A stretch of DNA of 64,000 bases, from contig JACQPN010000005.1 in the NCBI GenBank assembly GCA_016207515.1, positions 12,810-76,809 of the forward strand, given 5' to 3'. This document shows positions 884 through 25,312 of this stretch, one piece after another. The position numbers were made by a program, and so were the translations under genes. The stretch is from Methanobacteriota archaeon. Lineage in GTDB: Archaea > Thermoplasmatota > SW-10-69-26 > JACQPN01. Each line of letters opens with the position of its first letter. Position 1 is the stretch's first letter. The notes under the pieces were generated by a model. It saw nothing but the letters and a program-made list of their open reading frames with translations, did not search any database and was not told where the DNA came from.

Positions 884-3049
884 GTGGTCCGGATGGTCCT
901 TCAAAACGCCTTACTCATCTCCATAGGGTCGGCTGTCGCTGCCGGCCTCGTCGCTAGCGGCTTCGCCTTGACGCTCTCGCGACCCGCCAGTCGCGGGAAG
1001 GACAATGCGGCGCTCGCGGCCGTGTCGAGCGCCGTCGCGACCCAAGTCAGGTGGCTCTACCTTCGCCAAGGACAAATCATTGCGGTCACTTGCGCTCTTC
1101 TAGCCGGCATCGTGGGTGTCTTTGCGACCCCCGAAGCTGGTCTCGCCGTCTTGATAGGCGCGGCCACGACGCTTCTCGTGGGGCTTGCGGCCTTGAACCT
1201 GACAGCGGGCGCCGTGTACCGCGTCGCGCTCCTTTCAAAGGACCAAACGCCCGAAGCGCTGCGTCAAGCGCTGAGGGCGGGGACGGCGATAGGACTCCTT
1301 TCGACGGGCCTCACGCTCGTCGTTGTCGCCGCCACGTTGTTCCTTCTCGGAGGAAGCGCACTTACGGGTGCCGGGCTACCGACGATCGACGCTCTTCTCG
1401 GCTTTGCCCTGGGTGCAGCTACGGTGGCGCTTCTCAACCGGCTCGGTGGCGGGATATTCACGAAAAGCGCCGACATAGGGGCGGACCTCGTCGGCCAGGT
1501 CGAAGCGGGCCTCGCCCCCGACGACCCTCGAAACCCCGCTGCGTTCGCAGATGCATGCGGCGACCAATTGGGTTCCGCCGCGGCGGCCGCCTGCGAATTC
1601 GCCGAAGTCTACGCGACGTCGCTGGTGGCCGCGATGGCCCTCGGGGTCGCGCTCGCGATCGGGGCCGCAAGCGTTCCCGCGGAGATCGACGCGTGGGCGA
1701 GCCTGCCGCTCCTCCTTGGGGCGAGCGGAGTCATCGCTTCCATCATCGCGACGCTCGTCTTCGCGTCGGGCAAGGGCGACACCGTCGCCGGCACGAGGAT
1801 GACCCGGGCGTACGTGGTGGGCGGGCTCGTTTCAGGCGTGGGGGGCTACTTCGTCGTGAGCGTCGCGGTCGGGACCGAGAACATCGGCCTCTACATCGCC
1901 TTCCTCCTTGGCATCCTCGGCGGGATGGTCACGGCACTCCTCTCCGAGAAGTACACGACGCCGTCGGGCAAGAAAGTCGCGGAGATCGCCGAATCCAGTA
2001 AGACTGGAAGCGCCACCAACATCATCGCGGGGCTCGGCAACGGCCTCGAAGCGACGGGTTCGCCGACGATGATACTCCTCATCGTCGTCATAGCGGCCTA
2101 CGCGGCGGGCGTGAGCTACTCGGCCGCCAACTCGCTCCAAGCGGGCATACTCGGCATCGCGCTTTCTGGCGTTGGTCTACTTTCGATCACGGCGATCACG
2201 TTGGGCATTTCCATCAACGCCGCGATAACGGATTGCGCGAACGGCCTATGGGCGCTTTCCGGGAACAAGGGGGGGCAGGCGCGCGAAGCGCTCACGGCGA
2301 GCGGCAAGGGTGCGCTTCCCTACGCCCGCTCCATCGTCGTCGCCTCCTCGTTGTTTGCGGCGCTCTCACTCGTCCTTTTCTTCGGCTGGCGCGTCGGCGA
2401 GGCCTGCGGCACGCAACCCGCAGGAGCGGCGGCCGTGGTGTACAACTACGTCTCCTGCGCCAAGGTGATGACTGGAGGGGCTTTGACCGTGAACATCAGC
2501 GACCCTTACGCCCTCGTCGGTCTCTTCATCGGCGGAATGATGCCTTTCCTCGTCACGGCCCACGTCACCCAGGCGGCCTCCAGGACGGCCGTCGGGATCG
2601 TCACGGAATCGAGGCGCCAATTGAGGGAGCGGCCGAACATCCTCGGCGGCTCCGAGAAGCCCGACTACGACGCGGTGGTCAAGGCGGGTTCAGAGGCAAG
2701 CCTCGCGCAGCTCAGCGTCCCGGCCGTGATCGCTTTGGGCATCCCGCTTCTCATCGGCATGGCGCTTCCCCCGACGGCGCTTGCGGGCCTCATAGCCGGC
2801 GTCACGGCCACCGGGCTTCTTCTCGCCATGATGCTCATCCTTTCAGGGGCCGGCTGGGACAGCGCCCGGCAATCCCTGGAGTTTTCGAAGACCGATTCGC
2901 CGCAGCACAAGGCGTCGGTCGTCGGCGACACCGTGGGCGATTCGTTCAAGGACGCCGCCGGGCCGGCGCTGAACGTTCTCATCCGCGTGACGGCGCTCAC
3001 CGCCATCATCCTGCTTCCCTTCTTCCTCTCTCAGAGCCTCATCAGGTAG
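884..3049 (+). CDS. membrane-bound pyrophosphatase (H+-PPase) homolog, divergent paralog
   Basis: About 16 TM helices. Conserved GGGIFTKSADIGADLVGQVEAG and DPRNPA motifs and a C-terminal VVGDTVGDSFKDAAGPALNVLI motif are present. The canonical DNVGDNVGDxAGMGxDLFESY block is replaced by DACGDQLGSAAAAACEFAEVY. The in-frame ATG at 893 is the likely leaderless start. Confidence 0.75.
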   Translation: MVRMVLQNALLISIGSAVAAGLVASGFALTLSRPASRGKDNAALAAVSSAVATQVRWLYLRQGQIIAVTCALLAGIVGVFATPEAGLAVLIGAATTLLVGLAALNLTAGAVYRVALLSKDQTPEALRQALRAGTAIGLLSTGLTLVVVAATLFLLGGSALTGAGLPTIDALLGFALGAATVALLNRLGGGIFTKSADIGADLVGQVEAGLAPDDPRNPAAFADACGDQLGSAAAAACEFAEVYATSLVAAMALGVALAIGAASVPAEIDAWASLPLLLGASGVIASIIATLVFASGKGDTVAGTRMTRAYVVGGLVSGVGGYFVVSVAVGTENIGLYIAFLLGILGGMVTALLSEKYTTPSGKKVAEIAESSKTGSATNIIAGLGNGLEATGSPTMILLIVVIAAYAAGVSYSAANSLQAGILGIALSGVGLLSITAITLGISINAAITDCANGLWALSGNKGGQAREALTASGKGALPYARSIVVASSLFAALSLVLFFGWRVGEACGTQPAGAAAVVYNYVSCAKVMTGGALTVNISDPYALVGLFIGGMMPFLVTAHVTQAASRTAVGIVTESRRQLRERPNILGGSEKPDYDAVVKAGSEASLAQLSVPAVIALGIPLLIGMALPPTALAGLIAGVTATGLLLAMMLILSGAGWDSARQSLEFSKTDSPQHKASVVGDTVGDSFKDAAGPALNVLIRVTALTAIILLPFFLSQSLIR

Positions 3050-9755: not shown

Positions 9756-10580
9756 TTACTGTTTTGGCGCTAAGGCCAGTGGAGCGACGACGGCCCGATA
9801 GTCGTTGAGGGAAACGTCCAGATGACCAAGAGCCTTTGTCAAGTATTGGCTGCCGAGGACGGTCCGGACCCTGGTCGAGGCGTCGGGTAAGAGCCGGTGC
9901 ACGGCCTTTCGCATGGCGAGCGCGTCGGAGCCTCCGTGGGCGGCAAGGGCAAACAGATCGCAAAGGTCCTTCACCGCTTTGTCGTCCTTGGTCCGGTCGG
10001 GGAAACTGTGGAGTTTGGTGGCGACGAGGAGCGGCGTGGAGGGAAGGCACACGCTTGGCGCAAAGCCGGAGGCCCGCGGGTCGGGATCCTCCTCGGTGAA
10101 GGCCGTGGCAAGAAGGGGCTCGTCGATTGGGTCGAAACCGAGAATCTTGCGAGAGAGTGGGTGCCTCGCGGTGACCATCGGGTCCACGTAGAGCAGATGG
10201 TAGTGCACGTCCTCGATGCCCACCTTGGGCTCGACGCCCAAGGCCTCCCCCTGTTCATCCAACACCAGCCGGAAACGGAAAGCGCCCGAAGGCTCGAACC
10301 CCAGTTCGCGCAGGCGGTGCGGGGCCTTTGCCGCCGCACTTTTTGAGAACACGTCGGAGGACCACAGCGGGTCCACGAAATAGGCGAGATCGATGTCCCG
10401 GCTTCCGAAGTATTCCTGACCAAACGCGTTCTGCCACCCGTCTCTTACACGTAGGCGGACGGCGTGACCCCCGGCTAGCGCGACCGGGGTGGGGAGATCG
10501 TTCACGAGGGCGCTCAGGCGTCTTTCGCTCTCCCTGGTCAGGAGATTATCGTACACGGGCGTTGGCGACATGGTGCTCAC
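9756..10580 (-). CDS. AbiEii-like nucleotidyltransferase, paralog 2
   Basis: LAGGHAVRLRVRDGWQNAFGQEYFGSRDIDLAYF NTase signature. The KLHSFPDRTKDDKAVKDL block parallels paralog 1. It overlaps its upstream partner by 35 nt. Confidence 0.6.
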   Translation of the reverse strand: MSTMSPTPVYDNLLTRESERRLSALVNDLPTPVALAGGHAVRLRVRDGWQNAFGQEYFGSRDIDLAYFVDPLWSSDVFSKSAAAKAPHRLRELGFEPSGAFRFRLVLDEQGEALGVEPKVGIEDVHYHLLYVDPMVTARHPLSRKILGFDPIDEPLLATAFTEEDPDPRASGFAPSVCLPSTPLLVATKLHSFPDRTKDDKAVKDLCDLFALAAHGGSDALAMRKAVHRLLPDASTRVRTVLGSQYLTKALGHLDVSLNDYRAVVAPLALAPKQ

Positions 10581-11310
10581 GTTCGATCAGGAGTTCGGCG
10601 GCCTCGGCGGCGCTGCCGCCTTCCTGGAGGAGATCAACTATTACTTGCGGCAGCGGGGCGACGGGAATCTCTTTCCCGCCGACCTTTCGGACGCTGCGCT
10701 CGTCACGGACTAGGCTGTACGGGGCCGGGATCAGGCGGAAGTTCGAGCCACCGAGTTGTCCGCCCGCCTCTTCGAGGATGAGGCGTCTGGCTCGAAACAC
10801 GAAACCTCCATCCTCGACGAGGCTTGCTGCCTGGTAGTCGAGGTCGGCGGGTATGTACACATCCATGCGTCGCGGAAAGAGGTGGCCTGCGTACGCGTTC
10901 TCGGCGTAGTACGTGGTGGCCATGGCGGTAAGCGACACGAGGTCTTCTCCATCGTACATGTGGAGCGGCACTGGCGCTTTATCCAACAAGAGGAGCGCCT
11001 TTACGGGATCCGGCACGAAGAAGCCGAACCCGCGGGCCGGTTTTCTATGGTCCGCCCACCACCGATATGTTGCGGGCGCGTCGATGACGGTGATCGGCGG
11101 ACCGAGATCGATGAGACGCGCTGACGCGAGCTCATGGGTGATCTGGTGGGCCCACGAATAGGCGGTCTTCGCCGTCATGGCGAGCGCGTTGACGGAACGA
11201 AGGGCTTCCCTGGAGTAGCGAGGTAACGAGAGTGATCGGCCCGCGGCGCCTAGCAGGTGGCGCATCACGGTGTCGCGGGCTGGACTAGACCACTTATCTG
11301 CATTTGACAC
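10546..11310 (-). CDS. AbiEi-like regulator/antitoxin, paralog 2
   Basis: N-terminal HTH-like region. C-terminal IPVAPLPQVIVDLLQEGGSAAEAAELL matches the AbiEi C-terminal ..ERTLLDL.. type block. Confidence 0.5.
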   Translation of the reverse strand: MSNADKWSSPARDTVMRHLLGAAGRSLSLPRYSREALRSVNALAMTAKTAYSWAHQITHELASARLIDLGPPITVIDAPATYRWWADHRKPARGFGFFVPDPVKALLLLDKAPVPLHMYDGEDLVSLTAMATTYYAENAYAGHLFPRRMDVYIPADLDYQAASLVEDGGFVFRARRLILEEAGGQLGGSNFRLIPAPYSLVRDERSVRKVGGKEIPVAPLPQVIVDLLQEGGSAAEAAELLIEREHHVANARVR

Positions 11311-11315
11311 AGTTC

Positions 11316-11345
11316 ATCTACTCCACAGATATCCGTGATTCCTTA
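11316..11345 (-). promoter_or_regulatory. TATA box (TTTAAATATAA on minus strand) for the AbiEi/AbiEii-like operon 2
   Basis: AT-rich patch 11300-11390. The box lies about 30 nt upstream of the start at 11310. Confidence 0.4.
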
Positions 11346-11348
11346 TAT

Positions 11349-11912
11349 TTAAATACTTTGCAGATAACTACGCTTGGGCTTGGTCGAGACTTCAAAACAG
11401 AGGCTGCCCCGCGCGCACCATCGGCAGGTTGCGCCGGCCGGCGGTGGCGGGTCGAGGGCCAGGACATGGGCAACGTCGTCGAGGAAGGGCATGAACGCTT
11501 CGTCGTCCCTCTTCATCTCCACCCACGTTAGCGACCCGTCCAAGGACGCCTTGCCCTCCGCGTTGGCGTCGAATGTCGCCGGCGAGAAGCACAGCAGCCC
11601 CATGCGCTTCACGGGCGCGGCCGCGAACTGCCTCGCCGCCGGCTTCTCGAGCGCAATCGCGTAGGCGTGCAATTGCCGCGCGTAGAGCGCGATGTGTGCG
11701 TCCTTCGGGTCCGTGGTCTTGAAGTCGATGACGCAGTAGGTCCCGTCGTCGAACTTGATCAGGGTGTCGAAGATGCCTCTCAGGACTATCCCGCGCGACT
11801 CGCCGATGATTATCGGTTGGCTCTCCACCCACTGCCCCGCATGGGCGAACCGTCCGGGCGGCAGCCCCAGCCCAAGGTCGTCCGTCCGCGTCCCCATGAA
11901 ACGCGCCTTCAT
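11349..11912 (-). CDS. Cas4/RecB-like PD-(D/E)XK nuclease with Fe-S cysteine cluster
   Basis: Motifs GIFDTLIKFDDG (D), CVIDFKT (D-x-K) and YARQLHAY (QhxxY). C-terminal C-x2-C-x5-C (CRWCARGSLC) is as in Cas4/AddB nuclease domains. No N-terminal Cys is visible, and the in-frame upstream extension has no usable start. Confidence 0.55.
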   Translation of the reverse strand: MKARFMGTRTDDLGLGLPPGRFAHAGQWVESQPIIIGESRGIVLRGIFDTLIKFDDGTYCVIDFKTTDPKDAHIALYARQLHAYAIALEKPAARQFAAAPVKRMGLLCFSPATFDANAEGKASLDGSLTWVEMKRDDEAFMPFLDDVAHVLALDPPPPAGATCRWCARGSLCFEVSTKPKRSYLQSI

Positions 11913-12166
11913 CGCAGCGCTGGCGGAACCTTGGGTTCCGCCGCGCCGTGCGCAAGCCCGGCTTGCGCGACGGCATCGATGGTCGTGAAGATCTTGGGGA
12001 AGGGCGATGGCGGGCGACGGATCCCCTGGACCACTTTGAGGTAGAAGCAGCGCTTACACTCTTCCCAGAGGAAGGCGATATCCAGAGCCCGTAAAGAACG
12101 CGTCGGCGCCAGCGCCGTCGGTCCATCGTGTGTCTTTGCCAAAAAGAATTTTGTTGCCGGCGGAAA

Positions 12167-14146
12167 TCATACTACGGGCAATCCTACGTCTTGCAGGTAC
12201 CCAAAGGTCGGATCGTAGAATTCCGGCTTTCTCGTGGCGTCCGCCGCGTCCCCTTCTGGGACAACAATAATCATCCCTTGCCGGGCACGCGTCATGAGTA
12301 CGCGGTAGGCGTTCTTCAGATAGAGTTTTCTTTCGGGTGACTTGATCCGTTTCCACTGATCGCCATGAAACGACCAATGATCCCAACCCTTCTCATGGTA
12401 TCGTAAGTCCGCGTCCCATGCAACGCACGTCCAATCGAGTTCTAATCCCTGAACATGAAATTCCGTGGCTACGTCCTCCAAGTAGTACGAGGACCGGACG
12501 TCCTCTTTTCCATCTAAAAACCAATGCACGGGATCGACCGGCGATCGAACGTGGATGGCATGCGGTTTCAACCGCTCGGCTTGCGAAGAGACAACTATTC
12601 CGTACCGCTCCGACCCTCGGGCCTTCTCTTTCAGCCATGACTTGGCCGTACCCAAGCTCCGGGTCAATACAATCGGATAGCGGTCGGCTTGCCGAATCGA
12701 ACGCCGGGCGCCATCCAAATCGACGTCCAAGATCTGCTTCACGAGCAGTGAAACGTTCTCCGCTCGAAACGAACGCATCGACGTGGCAAGGTGGAGCTCC
12801 GACTTCATCGTCACGTTCGGTCGCGGGCCAAGTGAATCGATCGCTCGTCCCGCCGCATATTCGGTGTCATGTAAGCGCGGCGAAATGAAAATGCCCCAAT
12901 CGGGGTAAGATCGATTAAGTGATTCAATCCATTCGCTTATCCCGGCCTCGCCCGTGTTTATTTCTTGGCCTCCGCCTACGAGACAAATCACGACTGCCCA
13001 ATCCGGGTGCCGATCGAGGCACGAGATGAGGAATTCCGGCTCTGACATGGAAAACCCCGGACGCTGCTTCTTGCGACTCATGAACGCAGCTGTTTGCTTC
13101 CGGTTCCACGCACGCTGGGCTTCATCGAAGATTGCGACGCGCTCGATCGGGGGCCCGTCGTCCTTCAGGCATTCATCCCGGAAATTGTGGATATTTTGAA
13201 TGAACGCCTTAACGCGGCTCCGCGTTTCCCCGAGTCGGACCGAGTGCCCGGCCTCGTCCGACCGTCGCTTCTGGTCACGGGCAAGCGCTTCGCGCAGTAT
13301 CTTGACGAGTGGGCCGTTTCCGGACAGATATACTGCATGCAATTCGCTCTTGGCATCCATGTGCTCGGTCGCAACATTGAGTCCGACGAGCGTCTTGCCC
13401 GCGCCGGGGACGCCTGTGACAAAACAAATCACCTTGCGCGATTCCCCCCGGGCGGAATCTATTATTTCGGACAGAAGATGCGATGTCGCGGAAAGATTCA
13501 CCGCGCCGCCGTCGCTTCTCGCGATTTCGGTTACAGAGTGATTCCCGTAAAGCGCACACGCCGCCTCGATGATTGTTGGGGTCGGCCGATACCGACCGGA
13601 CGTCCATGCCCGCCGGTCTATTCGCAGACCCGGCGCCCGGGCCAGGATTTGACGCATGGTGGGTCCGAATGTCCGGAGGTTTGCGCGAATCGGGTCGAAC
13701 AGACCGTCGTTCAACCTTTCGGAAAGAACAGGCGACTCGGGGTCGCTCGCGCCTGTCGCGATCAGGACCGGTACAATGAAGGCGTGATGGCTGGCCTCAT
13801 GGAAATTCTTGAGGTCTAGCGCATAATCCCAAACTTGTTCAATGGCATGGCGAGGAAACGTCTTCTCGCCAACCTTGAATTCCAGAACGAGGATCACAGA
13901 GTCGAGAACCAGCACAACGTCAATCCGACGGCCCATCCTGGGAATCACGTACTCGAAAAAGATGGCACCATCCATGTTCCCGAGTGCCGCCTGAAGAAAA
14001 CCCACCTCTTCACGCCATGCGGCAAGCTGCGCTTCCGTTGGTGGAAGGCCGACTTGGCTTGCCTCAGCGGCCAGACGGTCGAGGATTGCGCTCCCATCGG
14101 CCTTGGAGAAGTCCGTGATTTCGCTGGAGTAAAAAGCCCGGTCCAT
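12167..14146 (-). CDS. DUF2075-type protein: N-terminal PD-(D/E)XK (Mrr/NERD-like) nuclease + P-loop ATPase + SF1-helicase-like C-terminal domain
   Basis: Nuclease motif [21 protein letters not shown]. Walker [11 protein letters not shown] and Walker [10 protein letters not shown]-terminal [15 protein letters not shown] resembles the UvrD-type helicase motif VI region. Confidence 0.7.
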
Positions 14147-14775: not shown

Positions 14776-15549
14776 TTACCCGCCCACCGAGTGCACCCTG
14801 AATGCTCCGGCCACGGTGTATTCGACGCTCAATGGCGCCACCCCTTCGTTCTCCCACAGCAGGCTGAAAATGTCCCGCCTCATGGCAGTGAACGTCCCCT
14901 CCCCTTCATGGGCGGTCTTTTCCACGTGGTTGGTGGTCACGCCGTCCTTGTGGCTGTGGACGTTGAAGTATATCATTCCGTCCGCCTCGACTACTTTCCA
15001 CTTGTAGGTGAGGGTCGCGTTTTCTTCCATTACGAGGTTGGCTTCGAGGAATTGCCTCGCCGCGATTGATTTGGTGTCCTTCAGTTCGGCGGTTGTGACC
15101 ACTTCACGCGTGAGAGTGATCGCGACCGTGTATGCCTCGTCGACTGCCCGTTGGGTGCGGACGATTATCTTCCATTTGCCCGGTAGTGGCGGCTCGACGG
15201 TCGCCACCGAGCTCTTCGTGTCGCTCTCTGGAAAGCCTGATCCCTGGTTCTTTCCCGAGGGGTCGAGCAGTGAGAAAGAGAGCGCGGATGCCGCCGATGC
15301 CCATGTGAGGTCGGCTTTGATGTCGACGACGCGCGCCTCGACGTCGAATTCGTGGATCTTCTCGCCGGGCGCGACGGGCGTTCCTGCGAGTCGGTCCGTG
15401 AAGGTGGTCTTGATCGGCGCCAATGGCTCGCTTGAGGTAGTCGGTGGCGTGGTCCCCGCCGCCGGGTCGTCATTTTGCTGGGTCACGCATCCCGAGAGAA
15501 GCATGAGGGCCAACGCAAGGTATGCAAGAGGGCTCCGATGGGCCGCCAT
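14776..15549 (-). CDS. secreted lipoprotein, unknown function
   Basis: Start re-assigned to MAAHRSPLAYLALALMLLSGC (signal peptide plus LSGC lipobox-like site). Thr/Ser-rich linker, then a beta-rich domain. Confidence 0.5.
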   Translation of the reverse strand: MAAHRSPLAYLALALMLLSGCVTQQNDDPAAGTTPPTTSSEPLAPIKTTFTDRLAGTPVAPGEKIHEFDVEARVVDIKADLTWASAASALSFSLLDPSGKNQGSGFPESDTKSSVATVEPPLPGKWKIIVRTQRAVDEAYTVAITLTREVVTTAELKDTKSIAARQFLEANLVMEENATLTYKWKVVEADGMIYFNVHSHKDGVTTNHVEKTAHEGEGTFTAMRRDIFSLLWENEGVAPLSVEYTVAGAFRVHSVGG

Positions 15550-15656
15550 CGTTTGGTCCAGCACAGGAAGTCGCCTTAAACCTTCTTGTGGGGGACGGTC
15601 GCGGGACCCGCCCATGGCGCCTAAAGTGTAAAGCGGGGTTAGCCGTTGGCAGGTCG

Positions 15657-17150
15657 ATGCCGCCGAAACAGACTGCCCGTAGCCTTCTCGAAAAGGGCTT
15701 GAAGCCGAAGACCCCAGGCGAGATGCTACGCGAGACCATCCTGACTTCACTCAGCAAGCTTCACTCCGACGGGTTCTCCCGCGAAGAGTCGATGCAAGCG
15801 CTCTTCCCGAACACGATACTCGATTCTGACGTCCTGGAGACCGTGACGTCGGCGCTCCTTTCCGGGAACAATTTTCTCGTCATCGGGCCCCCCGGTAGCG
15901 GGAAGACGACACTTGCGAAGGACGTGTGGCAACTATATCCCAAAGAAGGTGTCGCGGTGGAGACCTGCCCCGTGCAAGATGACCCGTTCTCGCTGGTGGA
16001 CGAGAAGTTCTCGAAGACGGCCCCCCCATGCCCCTACTGCAAGACGAGGTACGGTGGCGTTTCACTCCAAGAACTCGGCGAATTCGACCCGAAGGCGGTG
16101 AAACCGGACGAGGTGCCCGTGAAGCGGCTGCACTTGAGAGAGGGTTATGGTTTCGCGCGGGTCCAGGGCTCACCCGAGGTGTTCCCGGACAATCTCACCG
16201 GTTCTATCAACCTCTCGAAATTGGAAGAGTTGGGCGACCCCACGTCGCCCTTGGTGTTGGAGCCTGGGAAACTTTTGCAGGCAAACAGGGGCGTTCTCCT
16301 CATCGACGAGATCGGGAAGTTACCGAGGGGGACGCAAAACGTCCTTCTACAAGCACTCCAAGAACGGATCGTGACGCCGGCGAAATCAAGGGAAACGTTC
16401 CCGGCGAGTTTCATCGCCGTCACTACGTCCAACCTCGACGACCTCGACAACATCAGCGAGCCGTTGAACGATCGCCTCGTGAATCTCCAGGTTCCCTTCA
16501 ACAAGGACCATTCGAAGAACATGCGGATCGTTGAAGTGGCGTTCAGCGCGCAAAACGCCGTGAAGATCCCATGGGTGTTTCGCGAGGCGAGTGTGCACCT
16601 CATCGAGGAGTGGCGTAAGACCAGCCAAGGCCTCCCGGAACTCTACGAGGTGGGAAGCAACAGGAGCATGATCGACGTCCTACGCCGTTCCGAATCGTTT
16701 GCCGTCCTCGCCGGAAGCAGCGCTTTGAGGGCCGAGGACTTCGGCCGCGGGATAAAGGAGGCGATGCGGGGCCGCATCAGGGCACGCGGCTCAGACAGCC
16801 TCGACGAATCGCGTTCCATCGTCGACCAGTTCGTCGAGAAGACCTGGCGACGCTCGTTGGAGCGTTCCTGCGTCACCCACTGGTGCCTGTTCTTCGAGGG
16901 CGAGTTGAAGAAGGACCGGGCGGAGGCGGAGAGGGTGTTGAAGGAGGTGCGAAGTGTAGTCACCATGGACGCAGAAAAACAGGTGGAGGCGCTACGAGAC
17001 CACAGCCCGCACACGCGCTACAAGCGGTTCGCCGACCACGTGGGGCGCATGGAGCGCGCCACAAAGGCTGACGTCCCGGGAAACGTCGCAGGCACCATAG
17101 CGCTCTTCGACGAACTCAAGGTCTTTGACAAGGACCCGGCGAAGATCTGA
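15657..17150 (+). CDS. AAA+ ATPase, Mg-chelatase ChlI/MoxR-like, with C4 zinc-ribbon insertion
   Basis: Walker A FLVIGPPGSGKTTLAKD. Inserted CPVQDD...CPYCKTRYGG. Walker B / sensor region GVLLIDEIGKLPRGTQNVLLQALQERIVTPAKSRETFPASFIAVTTSNLDDLD is ChlI-like. Start re-assigned to the Met at 15657 (MPPKQTARSLLEKG). Confidence 0.75.
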   Translation: MPPKQTARSLLEKGLKPKTPGEMLRETILTSLSKLHSDGFSREESMQALFPNTILDSDVLETVTSALLSGNNFLVIGPPGSGKTTLAKDVWQLYPKEGVAVETCPVQDDPFSLVDEKFSKTAPPCPYCKTRYGGVSLQELGEFDPKAVKPDEVPVKRLHLREGYGFARVQGSPEVFPDNLTGSINLSKLEELGDPTSPLVLEPGKLLQANRGVLLIDEIGKLPRGTQNVLLQALQERIVTPAKSRETFPASFIAVTTSNLDDLDNISEPLNDRLVNLQVPFNKDHSKNMRIVEVAFSAQNAVKIPWVFREASVHLIEEWRKTSQGLPELYEVGSNRSMIDVLRRSESFAVLAGSSALRAEDFGRGIKEAMRGRIRARGSDSLDESRSIVDQFVEKTWRRSLERSCVTHWCLFFEGELKKDRAEAERVLKEVRSVVTMDAEKQVEALRDHSPHTRYKRFADHVGRMERATKADVPGNVAGTIALFDELKVFDKDPAKI

Positions 17151-19032
17151 GGGCCATGATGCGAAGGCGAGTTCTCGCTGGGGGTTGACGGTCTTCTCCC
17201 ACATCCCCGATTGTCTTTCCTGGGAGGACGCCTTCCACCTCACGAGCGAAGAGAGATTGGAACTCGTAAGACGCCTTGCGGAAGAAGGCCCGGGTGCGAT
17301 CGACAGGTTCCTTGAGGAACGAAAGGAACAAGGCGGCCTGGGAGCGCATTTCGAGGACGTGAAGCGGCGTATGGAGGCGTTCGCCGCAGAAAGACGGCGC
17401 CGACTCCTCGAGGAGTTCGAGGAGAGGCGGAAAAGGGCGGAAGCGGAATCGGGCCAGAAACTCGTCACCGTGAGCGAGGCGAAGAAGTCGGCAGAAGAGC
17501 GGCTTCGAGAGCTTCTTGCCTCCCGGGACGCTGAATTGCGAGGCGCGCTACTTGGCGGAGACCTCGTCCGACTCACTTTGTCGGCAAGCCCAGGCGAAGA
17601 ACGGAAACGTGGTCCGATCGACGTGCTCCTCGGTTTCATTCTGGGAATTCTTGCCGCCATCGGACGCGTTTGGCGATCGTTCCTTTCGTTCCTAGGCCTA
17701 CGACGACGGGCACGGCGCACCACAATAGCAGCGTTTCGAGGCCTCGCGGGAACTTACGCCGAGATCGAGGGACGGGTCGGACTCGCGTTGCGATCAAGCG
17801 ACGATGTCCGGTCACTGGTGCGCCAACGAATGGGCCAACTCAGGGCGGGAGACCGGTTCTCTCTCTGGTGGCGTAAGCTCCTCGGCCTCGAAGACGACGA
17901 ATCCATCCTCCGCCGGTTCATCGAGGACGAGGTGGAGAAAGGCCTCACCGAGAAGGAACGCGAGATGATGCGGCAACGGGAGGAGTTGGAAAAGAACCTC
18001 GCGGGCCTCGATGAGCGGCGCCGTGCCGAGGAAGCCGAGACCCAAGGCGAGCTTGACCGCATCGAACGTGAACGCGAGGCGGCGATAAAGAGACTACGGG
18101 AACTCGCCTCGAACGCGCCCAGGGAGAGACTACGCCAAGAGGTCGTGGAGGACCTGCTCGCGTCGGGCCTCGTCCGGGAGACCGAAGGCAACATCACGAT
18201 CACGCACCGGCTCATCGACAGGTTCGCAGACCTCGTACTCGCAGCGGAGACGAAGTCCGCCAGGAGCGGCAAACGAAGCGGCTTCGGTCGGACGGCGGAG
18301 GGTGAAGGCGATTACGAGCGCTCGCCGCTTCTCTCGCGCGAAGACATGTCGAGGATGGACATAGCCGAATCCCTCGTTTCCGCGAGGTTGAACCACCCGC
18401 GCGTGAAGCACATGTTCGACGACGACGTCATCATCCACCGCGAGATACGCTCCGCCGTCACACACGCGGTCCTAGTCATGGACGCGAGCGCCAGCATGGA
18501 AGAGAACGGACGGATACTCGCGGCAAAAAGAGCGGTCCTGGCGCTCCACAGCGCCGTAAAACGATCGAACCCGCGTAACATCGTCGACGTCCTCGTGATG
18601 AGGACGGACGTGCGTAGGATCGACCTTCTCGAGGCGTGGAACCTCAAGCCACGGGGCTTCACGAACACGGGGAGGGCACTGAGGATGGCGTCGGACCTCT
18701 TGGAGCGGGAAGGCAAGGACAGGCAACTCCTCTACCTCGTGACCGACGGCCTCCCCGAGGCGCACACGGAGGGCGGCGAGGATCTTGCGGGCTTTCCCGA
18801 GAAAGCGATGCGCTCGGCGCTCGATTCATCGCGCCGACTCCGCTCTCTTCCGGGCGCCTACTTCGTCCAGGTGCTCTTGGAGGCCAAGGACCCCACGTAC
18901 GTCGAGGCGGCGGAATCCATAGCCTCACAAGGCAAGGGCCGTGTCCTTCGCGTCGACCCGGGCGACTTGGCCCAAAGGAGCCTCGCCGAATTCAGTCGTG
19001 CGACGAGGCAGTGGCAGGAAATACCGGCCTGA
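17125..19032 (+). CDS. von Willebrand factor A (vWA) domain protein with N-terminal coiled-coil and a single TM segment
   Basis: C-terminal vWA with MIDAS DASAS...T...D (HAVLVMDASASMEENGR...LLYLVTDGLPEAH). TM segment IDVLLGFILGILAAIGRVW. Long E/R-rich coiled coils. Overlaps the AAA+ gene by 26 nt. Confidence 0.75.
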   Translation: MTRTRRRSEGHDAKASSRWGLTVFSHIPDCLSWEDAFHLTSEERLELVRRLAEEGPGAIDRFLEERKEQGGLGAHFEDVKRRMEAFAAERRRRLLEEFEERRKRAEAESGQKLVTVSEAKKSAEERLRELLASRDAELRGALLGGDLVRLTLSASPGEERKRGPIDVLLGFILGILAAIGRVWRSFLSFLGLRRRARRTTIAAFRGLAGTYAEIEGRVGLALRSSDDVRSLVRQRMGQLRAGDRFSLWWRKLLGLEDDESILRRFIEDEVEKGLTEKEREMMRQREELEKNLAGLDERRRAEEAETQGELDRIEREREAAIKRLRELASNAPRERLRQEVVEDLLASGLVRETEGNITITHRLIDRFADLVLAAETKSARSGKRSGFGRTAEGEGDYERSPLLSREDMSRMDIAESLVSARLNHPRVKHMFDDDVIIHREIRSAVTHAVLVMDASASMEENGRILAAKRAVLALHSAVKRSNPRNIVDVLVMRTDVRRIDLLEAWNLKPRGFTNTGRALRMASDLLEREGKDRQLLYLVTDGLPEAHTEGGEDLAGFPEKAMRSALDSSRRLRSLPGAYFVQVLLEAKDPTYVEAAESIASQGKGRVLRVDPGDLAQRSLAEFSRATRQWQEIPA

Positions 19033-19092: not shown

Positions 19093-19974
19093 TCAATGCC
19101 GTCCACCGGTCCCGACCTTTACGACGAGGCAAGGGCATGGGGAGCGTTTGAGCACTCGATCCACCGTACTCCCCCAAAGGAACTGATGCGCACTTGGCTT
19201 CCGAGTCGCGCCCAGCACAAGCATCGTGGATCGGGCCTTGCGGGCGTAGGAAAGGATCGACCGGGCGGCGTCGCTGGATTCGGTCACCGCCTCCTCATAG
19301 GGTACGTCCTCGGCGTCGAGGATCATCGCACATGATCGAAGGACCTCGTTCACGCGAGTTGACGGGGCGCCGCGCGACGCCGCGTGGAAAAGGGTCACCG
19401 AACCTTTCCGGACGGACGCCGCGCGAGCTGCGTCGCCCGGTCTAGAGCGGGGCTCATCCCCCCGTGGACTCGCTAGTGCGGCGGCCACTTGAGTGGCCAA
19501 CACGGAGTGGTCGTAACCGGCCGTCGGGACGAGGACGCGCGTAGCATCGACCTGTGTGTGCTTCTTGTAGTCGACGACCATCACGTTAGTGGGACTGCCA
19601 CGGACGACGTCGTCGACGAGGTTTCCAAGTAGGAGCCGCTCGCCCCTGTCCTTTCCCGTCGATCCGAGGACCACGAGGTCGTGGCCGCCGGCCTTGGATT
19701 CGTGAATGATGGCGGCGGCTTCGGAGCGGGCAAGCATTATCTTGGACCGGACGACGGCCCCCCGGGCCTCGATCGAGGCGGACAGTTCCTCCAAGAGTTC
19801 CCCCGCCTCTTCGACGCGGTCGGCGACGTACCCCGGTCGCCTCTCGGTCGGGAGGGTGATGACGTTGAGGAGCATCACTTCGCCGTCGCCGCGCACAAGG
19901 CGCGGCAGGAGACCCTCGACGGTGCGCAAAAGGCGCGGAGAAACGGCGGGGACGAGGATGCGGCGAAAGAGCAC
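19093..19974 (-). CDS. universal stress protein, tandem UspA domains
   Basis: Two UspA-like halves, each ending in a G-x2-G-x9-G-S(T) ATP-binding type motif (VVLGSTGKDRGERLLLGN / MLVLGATRKPSAHQFLWGSTVD). Confidence 0.8.
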   Translation of the reverse strand: MLFRRILVPAVSPRLLRTVEGLLPRLVRGDGEVMLLNVITLPTERRPGYVADRVEEAGELLEELSASIEARGAVVRSKIMLARSEAAAIIHESKAGGHDLVVLGSTGKDRGERLLLGNLVDDVVRGSPTNVMVVDYKKHTQVDATRVLVPTAGYDHSVLATQVAAALASPRGDEPRSRPGDAARAASVRKGSVTLFHAASRGAPSTRVNEVLRSCAMILDAEDVPYEEAVTESSDAARSILSYARKARSTMLVLGATRKPSAHQFLWGSTVDRVLKRSPCPCLVVKVGTGGRH

Positions 19975-20069: not shown

Positions 20070-21182
20070 TCAGAACGTGCTGGGTCTCGACGTCGTCTGG
20101 TTGGGCCCACCCGACGGCGGCGCCGGCGGCAGATGCGTGAGTACGTCGTGCTCGAAGCCGAAATTCATGGTGGGTTCGCCCCCGAACGTCGTGTCCCAGG
20201 AGAAGAACACCTTGTACTTCCCGAAACCCGCCTCGTTGAAGTTCGGCCGGTAGAGGGTCATCTTCTGCGCCTGTACGGGCGAGAACGTGCCCATCACCAT
20301 GCGACCGTCGGGCCCCGTGACCCACATGGAGGGAATGACCTTCGATGGGCCCCGGTAGGTGAGACCGAAGGAGGCCCGCCGCGTCTCGTTCGTCACTTGG
20401 AACTCGTGTAGGAGCATCGGTTGTTGGTCGGTCGCGTTCACGCTCTTGGCGACGTTTCCGGATTGCGAGTAGGTGTCCGTCGTGTTGAACGGCATCAGCA
20501 TGTACACACCCGTCACCGAGGATGCCTGCGGACCGCCCGTGACGAGTTGCAGCTGTGCTCCTTGGGCGCCGCTGCCGGCCGAGGTCGAAAGGACGGCGAG
20601 ACCGATGTTTCCCCGGTTCCCCTTCTCGTGCATGAAGCCCCCTCGGGGAAGTTCGAGGCTTGCGGTCACGGTCACCAGTTGCCCCGGGGCGAGTGTCTGC
20701 GGCAGGTCGAACGTGGCCCCCGCCACGTAGCTGTCCTCGAAGCCGCTGAAGACGAACGCTACCGGCCGGGGATTCGTCGGATCGAGAGGCGGGAAAGTCA
20801 CGATCTTGTCGGTCGTGAAGGTCATGGTGGCCTTCAAGGGCTCGATGTAATGGATGTTGTTCCCCGATGGGCTCGTGAACCACGGGTGCGGGAAATTGCC
20901 GGAAGTGAACTCCTGGACGCCGTCGACGGCGACGGCGACCTGTCTTTCGGGTCTTACGCTGTCAAAGCCGTGGTCGGGCGTGAAGTAGGCCGTGAAAGGC
21001 CGTTCTACAAAGAATTCGTTACCGGCCTCGTCGGTGAAATTGTGGACGGGCCCGCCGGCGATATCCGTCGCCAATGGTGGCGTCGTGACGAGGTCCCCGG
21101 TGGTCACGTCCCCCGTGTCGATGCACCCGGAAAGGACCGCCGGGACCATAATGAGACAGGCTACGAGGGCGCTGGATCTCAT
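20070..21182 (-). CDS. secreted lipoprotein with beta-sandwich repeats, unknown function
   Basis: Start re-assigned to MRSSALVACLIMVPAVLSGC (signal peptide plus lipobox-like site). TATA-like element about 25 nt upstream (21205-21215). Confidence 0.5.
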   Translation of the reverse strand: MRSSALVACLIMVPAVLSGCIDTGDVTTGDLVTTPPLATDIAGGPVHNFTDEAGNEFFVERPFTAYFTPDHGFDSVRPERQVAVAVDGVQEFTSGNFPHPWFTSPSGNNIHYIEPLKATMTFTTDKIVTFPPLDPTNPRPVAFVFSGFEDSYVAGATFDLPQTLAPGQLVTVTASLELPRGGFMHEKGNRGNIGLAVLSTSAGSGAQGAQLQLVTGGPQASSVTGVYMLMPFNTTDTYSQSGNVAKSVNATDQQPMLLHEFQVTNETRRASFGLTYRGPSKVIPSMWVTGPDGRMVMGTFSPVQAQKMTLYRPNFNEAGFGKYKVFFSWDTTFGGEPTMNFGFEHDVLTHLPPAPPSGGPNQTTSRPSTF

Positions 21183-21330
21183 CTTGAAGGTGCTTATACC
21201 GGCCTTCCTATAAAACCAGTCTAGTCGGATGCCTTGAACATCCTCCACGGAGCAGGGACATCGATTCTCGCCTCGGGTAGCCGCGAAGCGTGCAGAAGCC
21301 GTCGCGCTCCGGCCCGTTTTCAAGCAGCCG

Positions 21331-23272: not shown

Positions 23273-25312
23273 ATGGCCGACCTCACCCCCTACGCCTTGG
23301 AACTGTCCCTTGCGGCCGCCGGCGTCGCACTCGTCTACGCGATCTACCTCACGATGAGGATACTCCGGCAGGACGAGGGCTCCGACAAGATGAAGGCCAT
23401 CGCACAAGCCATCCGTGAAGGCTCCATGGCGTACCTTGCGCGCCAGTACAGGACCATAGCCATCATCGCTGTCGCGGTGGCCGTCCTCTTAGCCGTCTAC
23501 CCGCCGCTCGGTCCCGTGGCCGCCGGCGCCTTCATACTTGGAGCCGTCCTTTCGGCGCTCGCAGGGTATGCCGGCATGCTCATCGCCATCCGGGCGAACG
23601 TCCGCACCGCGCGCGCCGCCGAACGCGGCGTCGGGCCCGCCATGGACCTGGCTTTTTCGGGCGGCACCGTCACGGGCATGGCCATCGTAGGGCTAGGGCT
23701 CTTCGGGATTGCCGGCCTCTACATGGTGCTTCGCGACGTGAACCTCCTTATCGGATTCGGGTTCGGAGCCTCGCTCATCTCGCTTTTCGCCCGCGTGGGC
23801 GGCGGAATCTACACGAAAGTCGCGGATGTCGGGGCGGACCTCGTGGGAAAACTCGAAGCGGGAATACCGGAGGACGACGCCCGTAACCCCGCCGTGATCG
23901 CGGACAACGTCGGCGACAACGTCGGCGACTGCGCCGGCATGGGTGCCGACCTCTTCGAATCCTACGTCGTCACTTTGATCGCGGCGATGATTCTCGGAGC
24001 GCTCACGGTTGGAAAGACCCTGAACGGGTTCGTCGTCGGCGACGAAGTGGTGCTGCTCCCACTCATCATCGCGGCCGGCGGCATCGCCGGGAGCATCCTC
24101 GGCAGCGTCTTCGTGCGCCCAAAGACCGAGGCCAAGATCTGGCCCTCCCTCAACGTGGGGATATACGTCGCCGCGGGCGTCTCGGCCATCCTTATCTACG
24201 TGGCGACGCTGGGGCAGCCGAACGGGGTGCAATACTTCCTCGCGGCCTCCGTCGGGATACTCACCACCATCATCATCAGCCACATCACGGCTTACTACAC
24301 GTCCACCGACAAGCCGCCGGTGCGCGAACTCGCCGAGCTCTCGAACGGCGGCCCCACGGCGAACGTCCTTTTCGGCCTCGGGATCGGGTTCCGAAGCACG
24401 ATACTCCCGATCCTCACCATCTCCGCGGCGATCCTCATCTCCTACCAACTCGCGGGGATCTACGGCATTGCACTTGCCGCCATGGGCCTCCTCTCGGTGA
24501 CCGGCATCATCATGTCCATCGACAGCTACGGGCCGATAAGCGATAATGCCGGCGGCATCGCCGAGATGAGCGGAATGTCATCCGACGTGCGTAAGGTCAC
24601 CGACGCGCTCGACGCTGTTGGAAACACAACGAAGGCGACGACCAAGGGGGTCGCGATCGCTAGCGCGTCGATCAGTGCCCTCGCCCTCTTCACGGCGTTC
24701 ACGCAAGAGGCAAAACTCGGGGACGTGAACCTCTTCGCTATGCCCGTCCTCGTCGGCCTCATCATCGGAGCGACGGTGCCGCTCGTCTTTTCCGCGTGGG
24801 CGATGCAGGCGGTGGGCCGAAGTGCGAACCTCATGGTCGAGGAAGTTCGCCGCCAGTTCCGTGAGATCCCCGGTATCATGGAAGGGACGGCGAAGCCAGA
24901 CTACGCAAGGTGTGTCGACATCTCGACGCAAGCGGCCATCCGGCAACTTGGAAGGCTCGGCGCCATCGCAGTCATCCCACCAATAGTCATCGGGCTTCTC
25001 TTGGGACCTCTCGCCCTGGCAGGTTTCCTCGTCGGAAGCATCCTCACCGGACAGCTTCTAGCCTACACGCTCTGCAACGCGGGCGCGGCATGGGACAACG
25101 GCAAGAAGTACATCGAACAGGGTAACCACGGTGGAAAGAAGAGCCCCGCGCATCAGACCGCGGTCATCGGAGACACCATCGGCGACCCTGCGAAGGACAC
25201 TGCGGGACCCGCGATAAACAGCCTCATAAAGGTCATCAACACGGTGAGTCTGCTCCTCGCGCCCTTGCTCGCCGGGTTGACGATCGCGGCATACATACCG
25301 GGATGGTCATGA
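23273..25312 (+). CDS. hppA: H+-translocating membrane pyrophosphatase, canonical, K+-independent type
   Basis: GGGIYTKVADVGADLVGKLEAG, DNVGDNVGDCAGMGADLFESY, AYYTSTDKPPVRELA and AVIGDTIGDPAKDTAGPAINSLIKV are all canonical. GNTTKATTKG has Lys at the K+-dependence position. Confidence 0.9.
   Translation: MADLTPYALELSLAAAGVALVYAIYLTMRILRQDEGSDKMKAIAQAIREGSMAYLARQYRTIAIIAVAVAVLLAVYPPLGPVAAGAFILGAVLSALAGYAGMLIAIRANVRTARAAERGVGPAMDLAFSGGTVTGMAIVGLGLFGIAGLYMVLRDVNLLIGFGFGASLISLFARVGGGIYTKVADVGADLVGKLEAGIPEDDARNPAVIADNVGDNVGDCAGMGADLFESYVVTLIAAMILGALTVGKTLNGFVVGDEVVLLPLIIAAGGIAGSILGSVFVRPKTEAKIWPSLNVGIYVAAGVSAILIYVATLGQPNGVQYFLAASVGILTTIIISHITAYYTSTDKPPVRELAELSNGGPTANVLFGLGIGFRSTILPILTISAAILISYQLAGIYGIALAAMGLLSVTGIIMSIDSYGPISDNAGGIAEMSGMSSDVRKVTDALDAVGNTTKATTKGVAIASASISALALFTAFTQEAKLGDVNLFAMPVLVGLIIGATVPLVFSAWAMQAVGRSANLMVEEVRRQFREIPGIMEGTAKPDYARCVDISTQAAIRQLGRLGAIAVIPPIVIGLLLGPLALAGFLVGSILTGQLLAYTLCNAGAAWDNGKKYIEQGNHGGKKSPAHQTAVIGDTIGDPAKDTAGPAINSLIKVINTVSLLLAPLLAGLTIAAYIPGWS

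Follow-up and report, generated by a model that had tools for sequence, protein, structure and literature searches.

The 64,000-nucleotide stretch analysed here (the window), taken from contig JACQPN010000005.1 of assembly GCA_016207515.1 and assigned to a Thermoplasmatota archaeon, contains a two-gene operon, the first gene encoding an AAA+ ATPase and the second a protein with a von Willebrand factor A (vWA) domain. The pair is real, conserved and uncharacterised, its parts being of known kinds, and on balance we favour its interpretation as a two-subunit, vertically inherited Thermoplasmatota AAA+/vWA remodelling machine, derived from the ChlI/ChlD class I chelatase motor lineage and serving as a membrane-proximal remodelling or cofactor-insertion chaperone. 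Intact AAA+ catalytic motifs, a complete MIDAS (the metal-ion-dependent adhesion site), near-constant adjacency of the two genes and kinship with chelatase motors are established for the pair, which looks like a housekeeping protein-remodelling machine and not a defence system. A first-pass annotation, made from the sequence without database searches, had described an operonic AAA+/vWA pair of the ChlI/MoxR kind with an atypical domain architecture and no characterised function, and all of this was borne out. The oddities that it flagged, namely a Cys4 insert, a gene overlap, a transmembrane helix and a possible conflict system, were found to be imprecise or explained by ancestry.

Distribution and organisation of the operon

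Related loci were collected by scanning one genome per species. At least 237 species genomes encode an ATPase relative, and of their loci the best 80 were analysed with ±8 kb of flanking sequence. All 80 come from metagenome-assembled genomes (MAGs), nearly all labelled Thermoplasmatota/Thermoplasmata or broadly archaeal; the labels include Methanomassiliicoccales-type genomes and Ca. Lutacidiplasma, together with a few Halobacteriales and one Proteobacteria. Identity is 46-64%, with a mean within-family column identity of 58%. A homologue search returned 629 ATPase homologues at E ≤ 1e-5, the closest being 50-85% identical over their full length, while the vWA homologue set comprised 26 proteins, and a later search with a vWA profile gave the same 26 (low-complexity helices limit the word index). 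Adjacency was counted at the 77 loci with enough sequence downstream of the ATPase gene, and in about 73 of these (~95%) a vWA gene lies directly downstream on the same strand. The ATPase and vWA genes are operonic, as had been proposed.

The ATPase start codon, ATG 15657, agrees with the N-termini of homologues in the alignment and with independent gene calls made on two further assemblies of this organism, and since both fit this position an upstream ATG at 15522 was ruled out. The longest open reading frame (ORF) of the vWA gene begins at TTG 17125, which adds 20 residues unmatched in most homologues. Most of these start 3-6 residues ahead of a conserved LPDC motif, and the NCBI and Logan gene calls both use TTG 17185, the start of a 100% identical 615-aa database protein (HY556_02550, from a 'Euryarchaeota archaeon' MAG). 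The gene most likely starts at TTG 17185 rather than at 17125, as judged from these alignments and calls, and the 615-aa form is used for numbering throughout. With this start the two genes are separated by a 34-nt gap, and the 26-nt overlap given in the first-pass annotation is an artefact of the longest ORF. At the 29 orthologous loci where the vWA N-terminal motif could be located, the gap had a median of 10 nt and lay mostly between -17 and +83 nt, with one outlier of 505 nt; 4-nt overlaps were present at five of them.

The ATPase

Pfam matches above cut-off comprised Mg_chelatase (3e-12), AAA_PrkA (1e-11), Sigma54_activat, AAA_5 and AAA_3, of which AAA_PrkA covers the entire AAA+ core and AAA_3 (PF07726, 36.5 bits against a cut-off of 27) is confined to residues 163-259. 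The best NCBIfam matches, to the LonB-related model lon_rel, to RtcR and to cobaltochelatase/ChlD models, fell far short of the respective equivalog cut-offs, and sequence and fold matches in the PDB were to LonB (3k1j/4zpx), BchI (1g8p), MCM, ComM, RavA and sigma-54 activators. The protein falls in the pre-sensor-1 hairpin superclade of AAA+ proteins (ChlI/MoxR/MCM/sigma54/Lon-type). AAA_lid_2 was not detected in it by Pfam and is listed for a few homologues, and its 497 aa compare with a MoxR size of ~300-350 aa.

Conservation of the motor motifs was counted in an alignment of 82 orthologues. In addition to the Walker A and Walker B residues (Table 1), sensor-1 N259, the Arg finger R273 and the lid (sensor 2) residues R336/R344 are each invariant in all 82, and because all catalytic residues are invariant the ATPase is expected to work as an active motor. 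Conservation is highest in residues 168-212, a stretch that reads R-V-Q-G-S-P-E-V-F-P-D-N-L-T-G … E-P-G-K-L-L-Q-A-N-R-G and, by analogy with NorQ (PMC13036017), may correspond to a helix-2 insert or pore loop. In the AlphaFold2 (AF2) monomer model the predicted local distance difference test score (pLDDT) drops below 50 at residues 173-209 within this stretch, as would be expected of loops that contact the ring or a partner. The family-specific C-terminal domain is modelled as helices 379-415, 421-435, 453-466 and 470-486 with pLDDT ~90, and a Pfam search with residues 379-497 gave no significant match (best E = 0.12).

The vWA protein

The architecture of the vWA protein (mean AF2 pLDDT 78.9) is uniform in the 26 homologues, with the vWA domain at the C-terminus. 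The C-terminal, MIDAS-containing vWA domain of the first-pass annotation was confirmed by a VWA_2 match and by the invariance in the homologues of DxSxS, the T of GFTNTG and the D of TDG. Foldseek matches of this domain were to the PilB minor-pilin vWA, the NorD vWA in the NorQD complexes 9qh6/9qhe and the Rpn10 vWA. The long charged helical region was likewise recovered, as AF2 helices at residues 50-133 and 180-327, those at 180-232 preceding a single coiled-coil-like helix. No AAA match was found when the N-terminal 400 residues, in which AF2 places these long helices, were compared with Pfam. A small hairpin-helix module between the last long helix and the linker appears winged-helix-like by eye in the model.

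The hydrophobic segment that had been taken for one transmembrane helix is, across the family, an Arg/Trp-rich amphipathic hydrophobic helix and not a canonical membrane span. In the protein described here a 14-residue uncharged run is followed by R-V-W-R-S-F-L-S-F-L-G-L, and the family consensus is P-P-W-W-R-R-A-L-R-x-L-A-R-x-L-R-x-L-L-F-P-L-L-W-L-L-R-L-L-x-P-R-R, which is amphipathic (hydrophobic moment 0.6-0.75), strongly so in its first half, and both flanks of which are basic. The uncharged run is at most 16 residues long in every homologue, the maximum 19-residue Kyte-Doolittle hydropathy (KD19) is 1.99 here and 1.0-2.1 in homologues, and pLDDT is 49-62. These features suggest a peripheral or re-entrant membrane-binding helix with both ends cytoplasmic, the latter because the vWA domain would need to be on that side to meet the ATPase.

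Table 1. Features of the AAA+/vWA operon and of its immediate flanks. Positions are those of the window; residues are numbered in the 497-aa ATPase or the 615-aa vWA protein.
Feature	Position	Strand	Remarks
AAA+ ATPase gene	15657..17150	+	497 aa, chelatase-like (ChlI/ChlID-related); Pfam, NCBIfam and PDB matches, homologues
Walker A GPPGSGKT	15885..15908	+	residues 77-84; K83 and T84 invariant, 82/82
Cys3Asp metal-site-like motif C104-P-V-Q-D108-D-P...C125-P-Y-C128	15966..16040	+	C-x3-D…C-x2-C, after strand beta2
Most conserved stretch (RVQGSPEVFPDNLTG...GDPTSPLVLEPGKLLQA)	16158..16283	+	proposed helix-2 insert / pore-side loops; dense invariant columns 168-212
Walker B VLLIDE	16293..16310	+	residues 213-218; D217 and E218 invariant, 82/82
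Family-specific C-terminal helical domain	16791..17147	+	residues 379-497; invariant YWC (W409, C410)
Intergenic spacer, 34 nt	17151..17184		GGGGG run immediately 5' of the TTG start, read from the sequence
vWA partner gene	17185..19032	+	615 aa; NCBI HY556_02550; identical database protein, gene calls, N-terminus alignment
N-terminal I-P-D-C motif	17203..17214	+	residues 7-10, opens small helical N-domain; P8 and C10 kept in at least 90%
First long charged helical region	17332..17583	+	residues 50-133; AF2 helices 50-112, 114-123, 126-133, pLDDT up to 94
Hydrophobic Arg-interrupted helix	17617..17700	+	residues 145-172, invariant W163; possible peripheral/re-entrant membrane anchor
Single helix of ~90 residues, coiled-coil-like	17896..18165	+	residues 238-327; AF2 pLDDT 79-95
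Small beta-hairpin + helix module	18166..18261	+	residues 328-359; AF2 strands 330-333 and 336-339, helix 341-359; shared with ChlID fusions
Conserved disordered linker, A-E-G-E-G-x-Y	18262..18324	+	G368, G373, G375 invariant; E372, E374 in at least 90%; pLDDT <50 at 360-376
vWA domain, complete MIDAS	18430..18984	+	residues 416-600; Pfam VWA_2 3.9e-8; D433-A-S435-A-S437, T493, D521
Divergent lipoprotein gene	14776-15549	-	257 aa, starts MAAHRSPLAYLALALMLLSGC, LLSGC lipobox, no Pfam match
Convergent tandem universal stress protein (Usp) gene	19093-19974	-	2 stretches; Pfam, gene calls

A Cys3Asp motif inherited from ChlI-type ATPases

The ATPase had been described as carrying an unusual Cys4 zinc-ribbon insert directly after Walker A. 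There are only three cysteines in the motif (C104, C125 and C128), the fourth position being taken by Asp108, so that the four Cys ligands of a C4 zinc ribbon are not present, and its place is not directly after Walker A but behind helix alpha1 and strand beta2, 20 residues past K83. The three cysteines are 100% conserved among the 82 orthologues and the C104-C128 spacing is constant at 25 residues in all of them, with position 108 occupied by D in 78, by E in two and by C in two. The motif is modelled by AF2 with pLDDT 76-85, and short helices, not beta-hairpins, lie between its halves.

Outgroup sequences from the profile search (see below) were then read for the same motif. At the same site a compact C-x3-C-x-P-x3-5-C-P-x-C is present in ChlI-like proteins and in ChlI-ChlD fusions, for example GCPFNCHPDDPVCPICR; an expanded loop with all four Cys is found in a ~760-aa family and in one distant member (P0156). 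At the second ligand position, Asp takes the place of Cys in the ATPase family described here, and Glu occurs in a bacterial ~460-aa sister family. Because these relatives already hold a C4 knuckle at the same site, the motif is inherited and not a new insertion and so cannot be called unusual; by sequence comparison it is a degenerate form of the C4 knuckle of the ChlI/ChlID clade, and it would be a structural metal site, probably for Zn. The series from Cys4 to Cys3Asp at a fixed site offers a defined target for probing the role of the metal site in ChlI-type ATPases.

Kinship with class I chelatase motors

A profile of the ATPase was searched against 1.84 billion representative proteins. 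ChlI-ChlD fusions and ChlI-like proteins of ~340 aa were found to sit just outside the ATPase family and its sister families, with the fusions outscoring LonB, and the motif R[IV]QGSP[DE] is common to the ATPase family and the ChlID fusions. When the vWA family was aligned with the ChlID fusion P0204 by hhalign, residues 320-607 matched 510-796 with a probability of 97.7%, the alignment starting at the hairpin-helix module. Sequence comparison has thus shown ChlI-ChlD fusion proteins to be the nearest relatives of the pair and, because of the shared Cys site, the R[IV]QGSP motif, the profile rank and the alignment of the C-terminal half, the pair is best understood as a ChlI/ChlD-type module that has been split and elaborated.

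The two arrangements have in common the Cys knuckle after strand beta2, the R[IV]QGSP[DE] motif and the order of hairpin-helix module, linker and MIDAS vWA. In contrast to the fusions, the pair is divided over two genes; its knuckle is C-x3-D…C-x2-C with a 16-residue expansion between the halves; the ATPase has an extra C-terminal helical domain of ~120 aa; and the vWA subunit has gained ~330 N-terminal residues, made up of a helical domain, long helices and the hydrophobic helix.

This ancestry raises the question of whether the pair is the motor (the I- and D-like subunits) of a genuine class I tetrapyrrole chelatase, whose CobN/ChlH-type subunit would be encoded elsewhere. Besides the relatedness to ChlI-ChlD fusions and ChlI-like proteins, both the ATPase (37.9 bits) and the vWA protein (38.8 bits, match 332-641) match the 'putative cobaltochelatase' model TIGR02442, homologues are named ChlI or ChlD in source annotations, and in haloarchaea a chlID fusion (HVO_B0050) adjoins cobN (PMC8305020). 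These TIGR02442 scores are, however, far under the cut-off of 779 bits. Moreover, of the class I D-subunit layout (N-terminal AAA-like domain, linker, MIDAS vWA) the vWA protein shows the vWA domain and MIDAS only, its N-terminal half consisting of long helices and the hydrophobic helix in place of an AAA-like domain, and the ATPase has its family-specific C-terminal domain. In contrast to HVO_B0050, the pair has no CobN gene nearby: no match to CobN/ChlH (PF02514) was found among the scanned ORFs of the window, in which the largest ORF has 805 aa, and none among the large ORFs within ±8 kb of the 80 related loci, in agreement with the first-pass annotation. Nor were homologues seen in Mg-chelatase or cobaltochelatase operons at these loci, the arrangement that it had named as contrary to its view; the large flanking ORFs are surface proteins (PKD, CARDB, Kelch, thermopsin) and not CobN, and a chelatase operon was rejected. 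A chelatase motor with an unlinked third subunit is thus, in our estimation, unlikely.

Two sister families were also examined. A bacterial-looking ~460-aa family (L086:6001-9172) has chemotaxis, histidine-kinase and PilZ neighbours; the 609-aa partner encoded downstream of its ATPase aligns with the vWA family (probability 96.7%), and its MIDAS appears degenerate (D-V-S-G-A). The ~760-aa family (P0169, P0175 and P0183; L087:6001-8361) contains the same type of ATPase with a full C4 motif, behind an N-terminal extension of ~250 aa that gave no Pfam match and has repeats which look SH3- or MIB/HERC2-like by eye. One of its members lies directly downstream of a ThiF/E1-like gene, hinting at a ubiquitin-like context.

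Comparison with LonB and PrkA

Among solved structures, the Thermococcus LonB AAA+ domain is the closest to the ATPase both by sequence (E = 3e-15 in the profile comparison) and by fold, and the two share an insertion between Walker A and Walker B as well as similar motifs in the sensor-1/Arg-finger region (Thermococcus onnurineus Lon, 3k1j/4zpx). The pair could thus be envisaged as a LonB/PrkA-like unfoldase that has no protease domain and acts in membrane quality control or regulated turnover, the vWA protein serving as an Rpn10-like substrate receptor. Such a role would suit lon_rel as best NCBIfam match, the AAA_PrkA match across the core, the Rpn10 vWA among the fold matches and the report of PrkA as an ATP-dependent protease (PMC9512850). 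However, neither a protease domain nor a PrkA C-terminal domain was found with Pfam or NCBIfam, lon_rel scores 46.8 bits against a cut-off of 516.6, and no protease gene is conserved near the related loci. Unlike LonB, the ATPase is also without a transmembrane insert, ends in a helical bundle and is paired with a vWA protein, and it is the ChlID fusions that outscore LonB and share the Cys and RxQGSP motifs with it. Kinship with the PrkA/YeaG-YeaH-SpoVR module was rejected because there is no PrkA C-terminal domain and the vWA partner gave no DUF444/YeaH match at E ≤ 10; a SpoVR-like conserved neighbour was likewise not found. We therefore hold an unfoldase of this kind to be decidedly unlikely.

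A model based on NorQ/NorD

AAA+/vWA pairs recur where force is used to drive cofactor insertion or complex maturation, as in the Mg and Co chelatases, NorQD, the Rubisco activase CbbQO and Rea1. The pair described here shares its two-gene AAA+ plus vWA operon with NorQ/NorD, CbbQ/CbbO, RavA/ViaA and CoxD/CoxE. As in MoxR-class pairs, its vWA protein is composed of an N-domain, a long linker and, at the C-terminus, a MIDAS vWA domain whose fold matches NorD. In the NorQ/NorD complex the ring bears the vWA domain, a finger of which lies in the pore and touches the helix-2 inserts, the NorD C-terminus contacts the post-sensor-1 loops and the N-domain binds the C-terminal (lid) helices of NorQ (PMC13036017). 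ATP hydrolysis twists and stretches the long linker, which opens the membrane-bound client for metal insertion (PMC13036017). A further likeness is that the NorD linker has hydrophobic stretches and that the NorQD client is a membrane complex (PMC13036017).

The linker of the vWA protein described here consists of long helices together with a membrane-seeking one. It is because the N-domain, long linker and C-terminal vWA domain match this logic of NorD that we propose a membrane-proximal remodelling or cofactor-insertion role, and by analogy the pair probably works like MoxR/vWA chaperones such as NorQ/NorD, with a client that is probably membrane-associated. By analogy with NorQ/NorD, CbbQ/CbbO and CobS/CobT, the ATPase would form a hexameric ring, on which the vWA subunit would dock through its vWA domain or its conserved linker, at the face formed by the conserved helix-2 inserts, while its N-terminal helical domain would meet the C-terminal helical domain of the ATPase. 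ATP hydrolysis would then pull or twist the long helical linker, with the Arg/Trp-rich hydrophobic helix keeping the adaptor close to the membrane on its cytoplasmic side. The MIDAS would grip an acidic residue of the client, which would be remodelled, for example by insertion of a cofactor or metal or by assembly.

Several observations weigh against such a chaperone. The closest solved structure by sequence is LonB and not a MoxR or ChlI protein, and the TM-scores of the ATPase in fold searches are low (0.2-0.35). Ring formation, the docking mode and membrane association are all inferred by analogy, and a tetrapyrrole chelatase role with an unlinked CobN/ChlH gene remains a competitor. At 4 of the 77 loci (L006, L014, L020 and L032) there is no adjacent vWA gene, although the partner may be unlinked or lost there. 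Clustering of all ORFs flanking the best 80 loci revealed no third gene common to loci beyond single clades, and no client was pinpointed in these flanks. The pair also differs from its models, in that the ATPase, with ~500 aa and a large insert between Walker A and B, is not a typical MoxR protein and is by sequence closest to ChlID and LonB, in that no client gene (norCB, cbbLS) is linked to it as in NorQD and CbbQO, and in that a vWA finger of the NorD type was not identified.

The long helices of the vWA protein (~300 residues), its amphipathic hydrophobic helix and the conservation of the pair across the phylum among housekeeping genes would also suit a structural, membrane-shaping coiled-coil scaffold, acting in division, vesicles or the envelope and assembled or disassembled by the ATPase. 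We rate this as very improbable, since no division or envelope genes are linked to it and a complete MIDAS together with ChlID ancestry favours an adaptor or chaperone; the idea is pure inference. Returning to the remodelling chaperone, a bolder version of it, which we put forward tentatively and regard as rather doubtful, is that the pair is an undescribed phylum-wide archaeal machine, in which a chelatase-derived ring is joined to a membrane-tethered coiled-coil vWA adaptor and the core function is independent of tetrapyrroles. If true, it would add a functionally new branch to the class I chelatase motor lineage, with a possible task in the insertion of metals or cofactors into, or the assembly of, a conserved Thermoplasmatota membrane complex. 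Related branches are the bacterial ~460-aa and the ~760-aa families.

A ternary conflict system as an improbable reading

The first-pass annotation had also pointed to the vWA-MoxR ternary systems, which have been proposed as conflict systems, and an anti-virus or abortive-infection function has therefore to be considered. An AAA+/vWA pair is the core of such systems, the AAA+ gene coming first and the vWA gene standing next to it, as they do here (Kaur et al. 2020, PMC7159879). Furthermore, in this genome a small defence islet (AbiEii, PD-(D/E)XK and PDC-S41 helicase) lies 1.5-6 kb upstream. The ternary systems, however, add a third gene (VMAP, iSTAND, FtsH or beta-propeller) in a fixed order, have an ATPase of the bpMoxR type and variable effector domains on the C-terminal side of the vWA domain, and diverge rapidly (PMC7159879). 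In contrast, neither a VMAP, iSTAND or beta-propeller third gene nor an effector domain after the vWA domain was found here, and the neighbourhoods of the 80 loci, with no conserved third gene and with housekeeping flanks, do not bear the suggestion out. The pair is archaeal, evolves slowly and follows its phylum, and this strong sequence conservation among housekeeping genes is the opposite of the rapid diversification and mobility of conflict systems (PMC7159879). The bpMoxR model (PF20030) scored 24.0 bits, under its 27-bit cut-off. PADLOC gave only generic AAA+ matches of 43-59 residues for the ATPase, none for the vWA protein and no system-level match, and the islet is absent from the other loci. 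A conflict system is thus extremely improbable.

The islet itself spans 9756-14146 on the minus strand, just upstream of the lipoprotein gene, and has a GC content of 0.57-0.58 against ~0.62 elsewhere. It comprises an AbiEii-type nucleotidyltransferase (9756-10580) with a 254-aa ORF as its possible antitoxin, a nuclease of the PD-(D/E)XK type within 11392-12126 and, at 12167-14146, a 659-aa Schlafen-group-3/DUF2075 helicase, which matches the PADLOC candidate system PDC-S41 with E = 5.8e-277.

Significance of the family

A literature search found no paper on this ATPase/vWA family, members of which carry in databases only the labels 'ATP-binding protein', 'MoxR-like ATPase', 'ChlI', 'ChlD' or 'VWA domain protein'. 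A VWA protein of Cuniculiplasma, CSP5_0782, is listed in a proteomics study and may or may not be an orthologue. The corrected reading guards against classification of the pair among the chelatases or the defence systems. The chelatase motor lineage has yielded a separate, strongly conserved two-gene module across an archaeal phylum, without a linked tetrapyrrole-binding subunit, and to identify its client would be to assign a function to a gene pair that belongs to the core of Thermoplasmatota, Methanomassiliicoccales-type methanogens among them.

Neighbouring genes

On long contigs the pair is flanked by housekeeping genes that differ by clade, such as those for Cys-tRNA synthetase with sugar-nucleotide genes, for ribosomal proteins, EF-2 and riboflavin genes, or for eRF1 and the Leu/Ile-tRNA synthetases. 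A number of neighbours were considered as client candidates and rejected, being syntenic within single clades only: archaeosine tRNA transglycosylase, a 2-hydroxyacid dehydrogenase, ribosomal protein S3Ae, an Asp-rich small membrane protein, a methylase and a FlaI-like ATPase. An apparent gene 'cluster' present at 26 loci turned out to be an antisense shadow ORF of the ATPase gene. In one clade (cluster 4; L041, L047, L049, L058-L061 and others) the vWA gene is faced by a convergent gene for a ~160-aa membrane protein with DSDGDGLxDxWE repeats, which are thrombospondin-type-3-like and Ca-binding. At the loci without an adjacent vWA gene, the ATPase gene is followed by a gene for a PKD protein, by a 414-aa ORF, or by a 219-aa ORF and then a GT4 glycosyltransferase (L020 and L032).

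In the window, the divergent lipoprotein gene and the convergent tandem Usp gene noted in the first-pass annotation are real genes, but they are not conserved beside the homologues. The same lack of conservation next to homologues of the pair holds for the gene at 20070-21323 (minus strand), which encodes a second predicted secreted or lipoprotein-type protein of 370-417 aa; its hydrophobic segment at the N-terminus ends in SGC, and it has no Pfam match. In the 107-nt divergent intergenic region (15550-15656) an A/T-rich box, CTAAAGTGTAAAG, lies ~22-36 nt 5' of the ATPase ATG, and TTTAAG on the opposite strand lies ~26-34 nt before the lipoprotein start, both as read by eye; their positions fit archaeal TATA boxes for leaderless or short-leader transcripts. 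Lastly, two genes for H+-translocating pyrophosphatases occur within 25 kb on the plus strand, at 884-3049 and 23273-25312, with Pfam scores of 439 and 849 bits, respectively, and by these scores the former may be a divergent paralogue.

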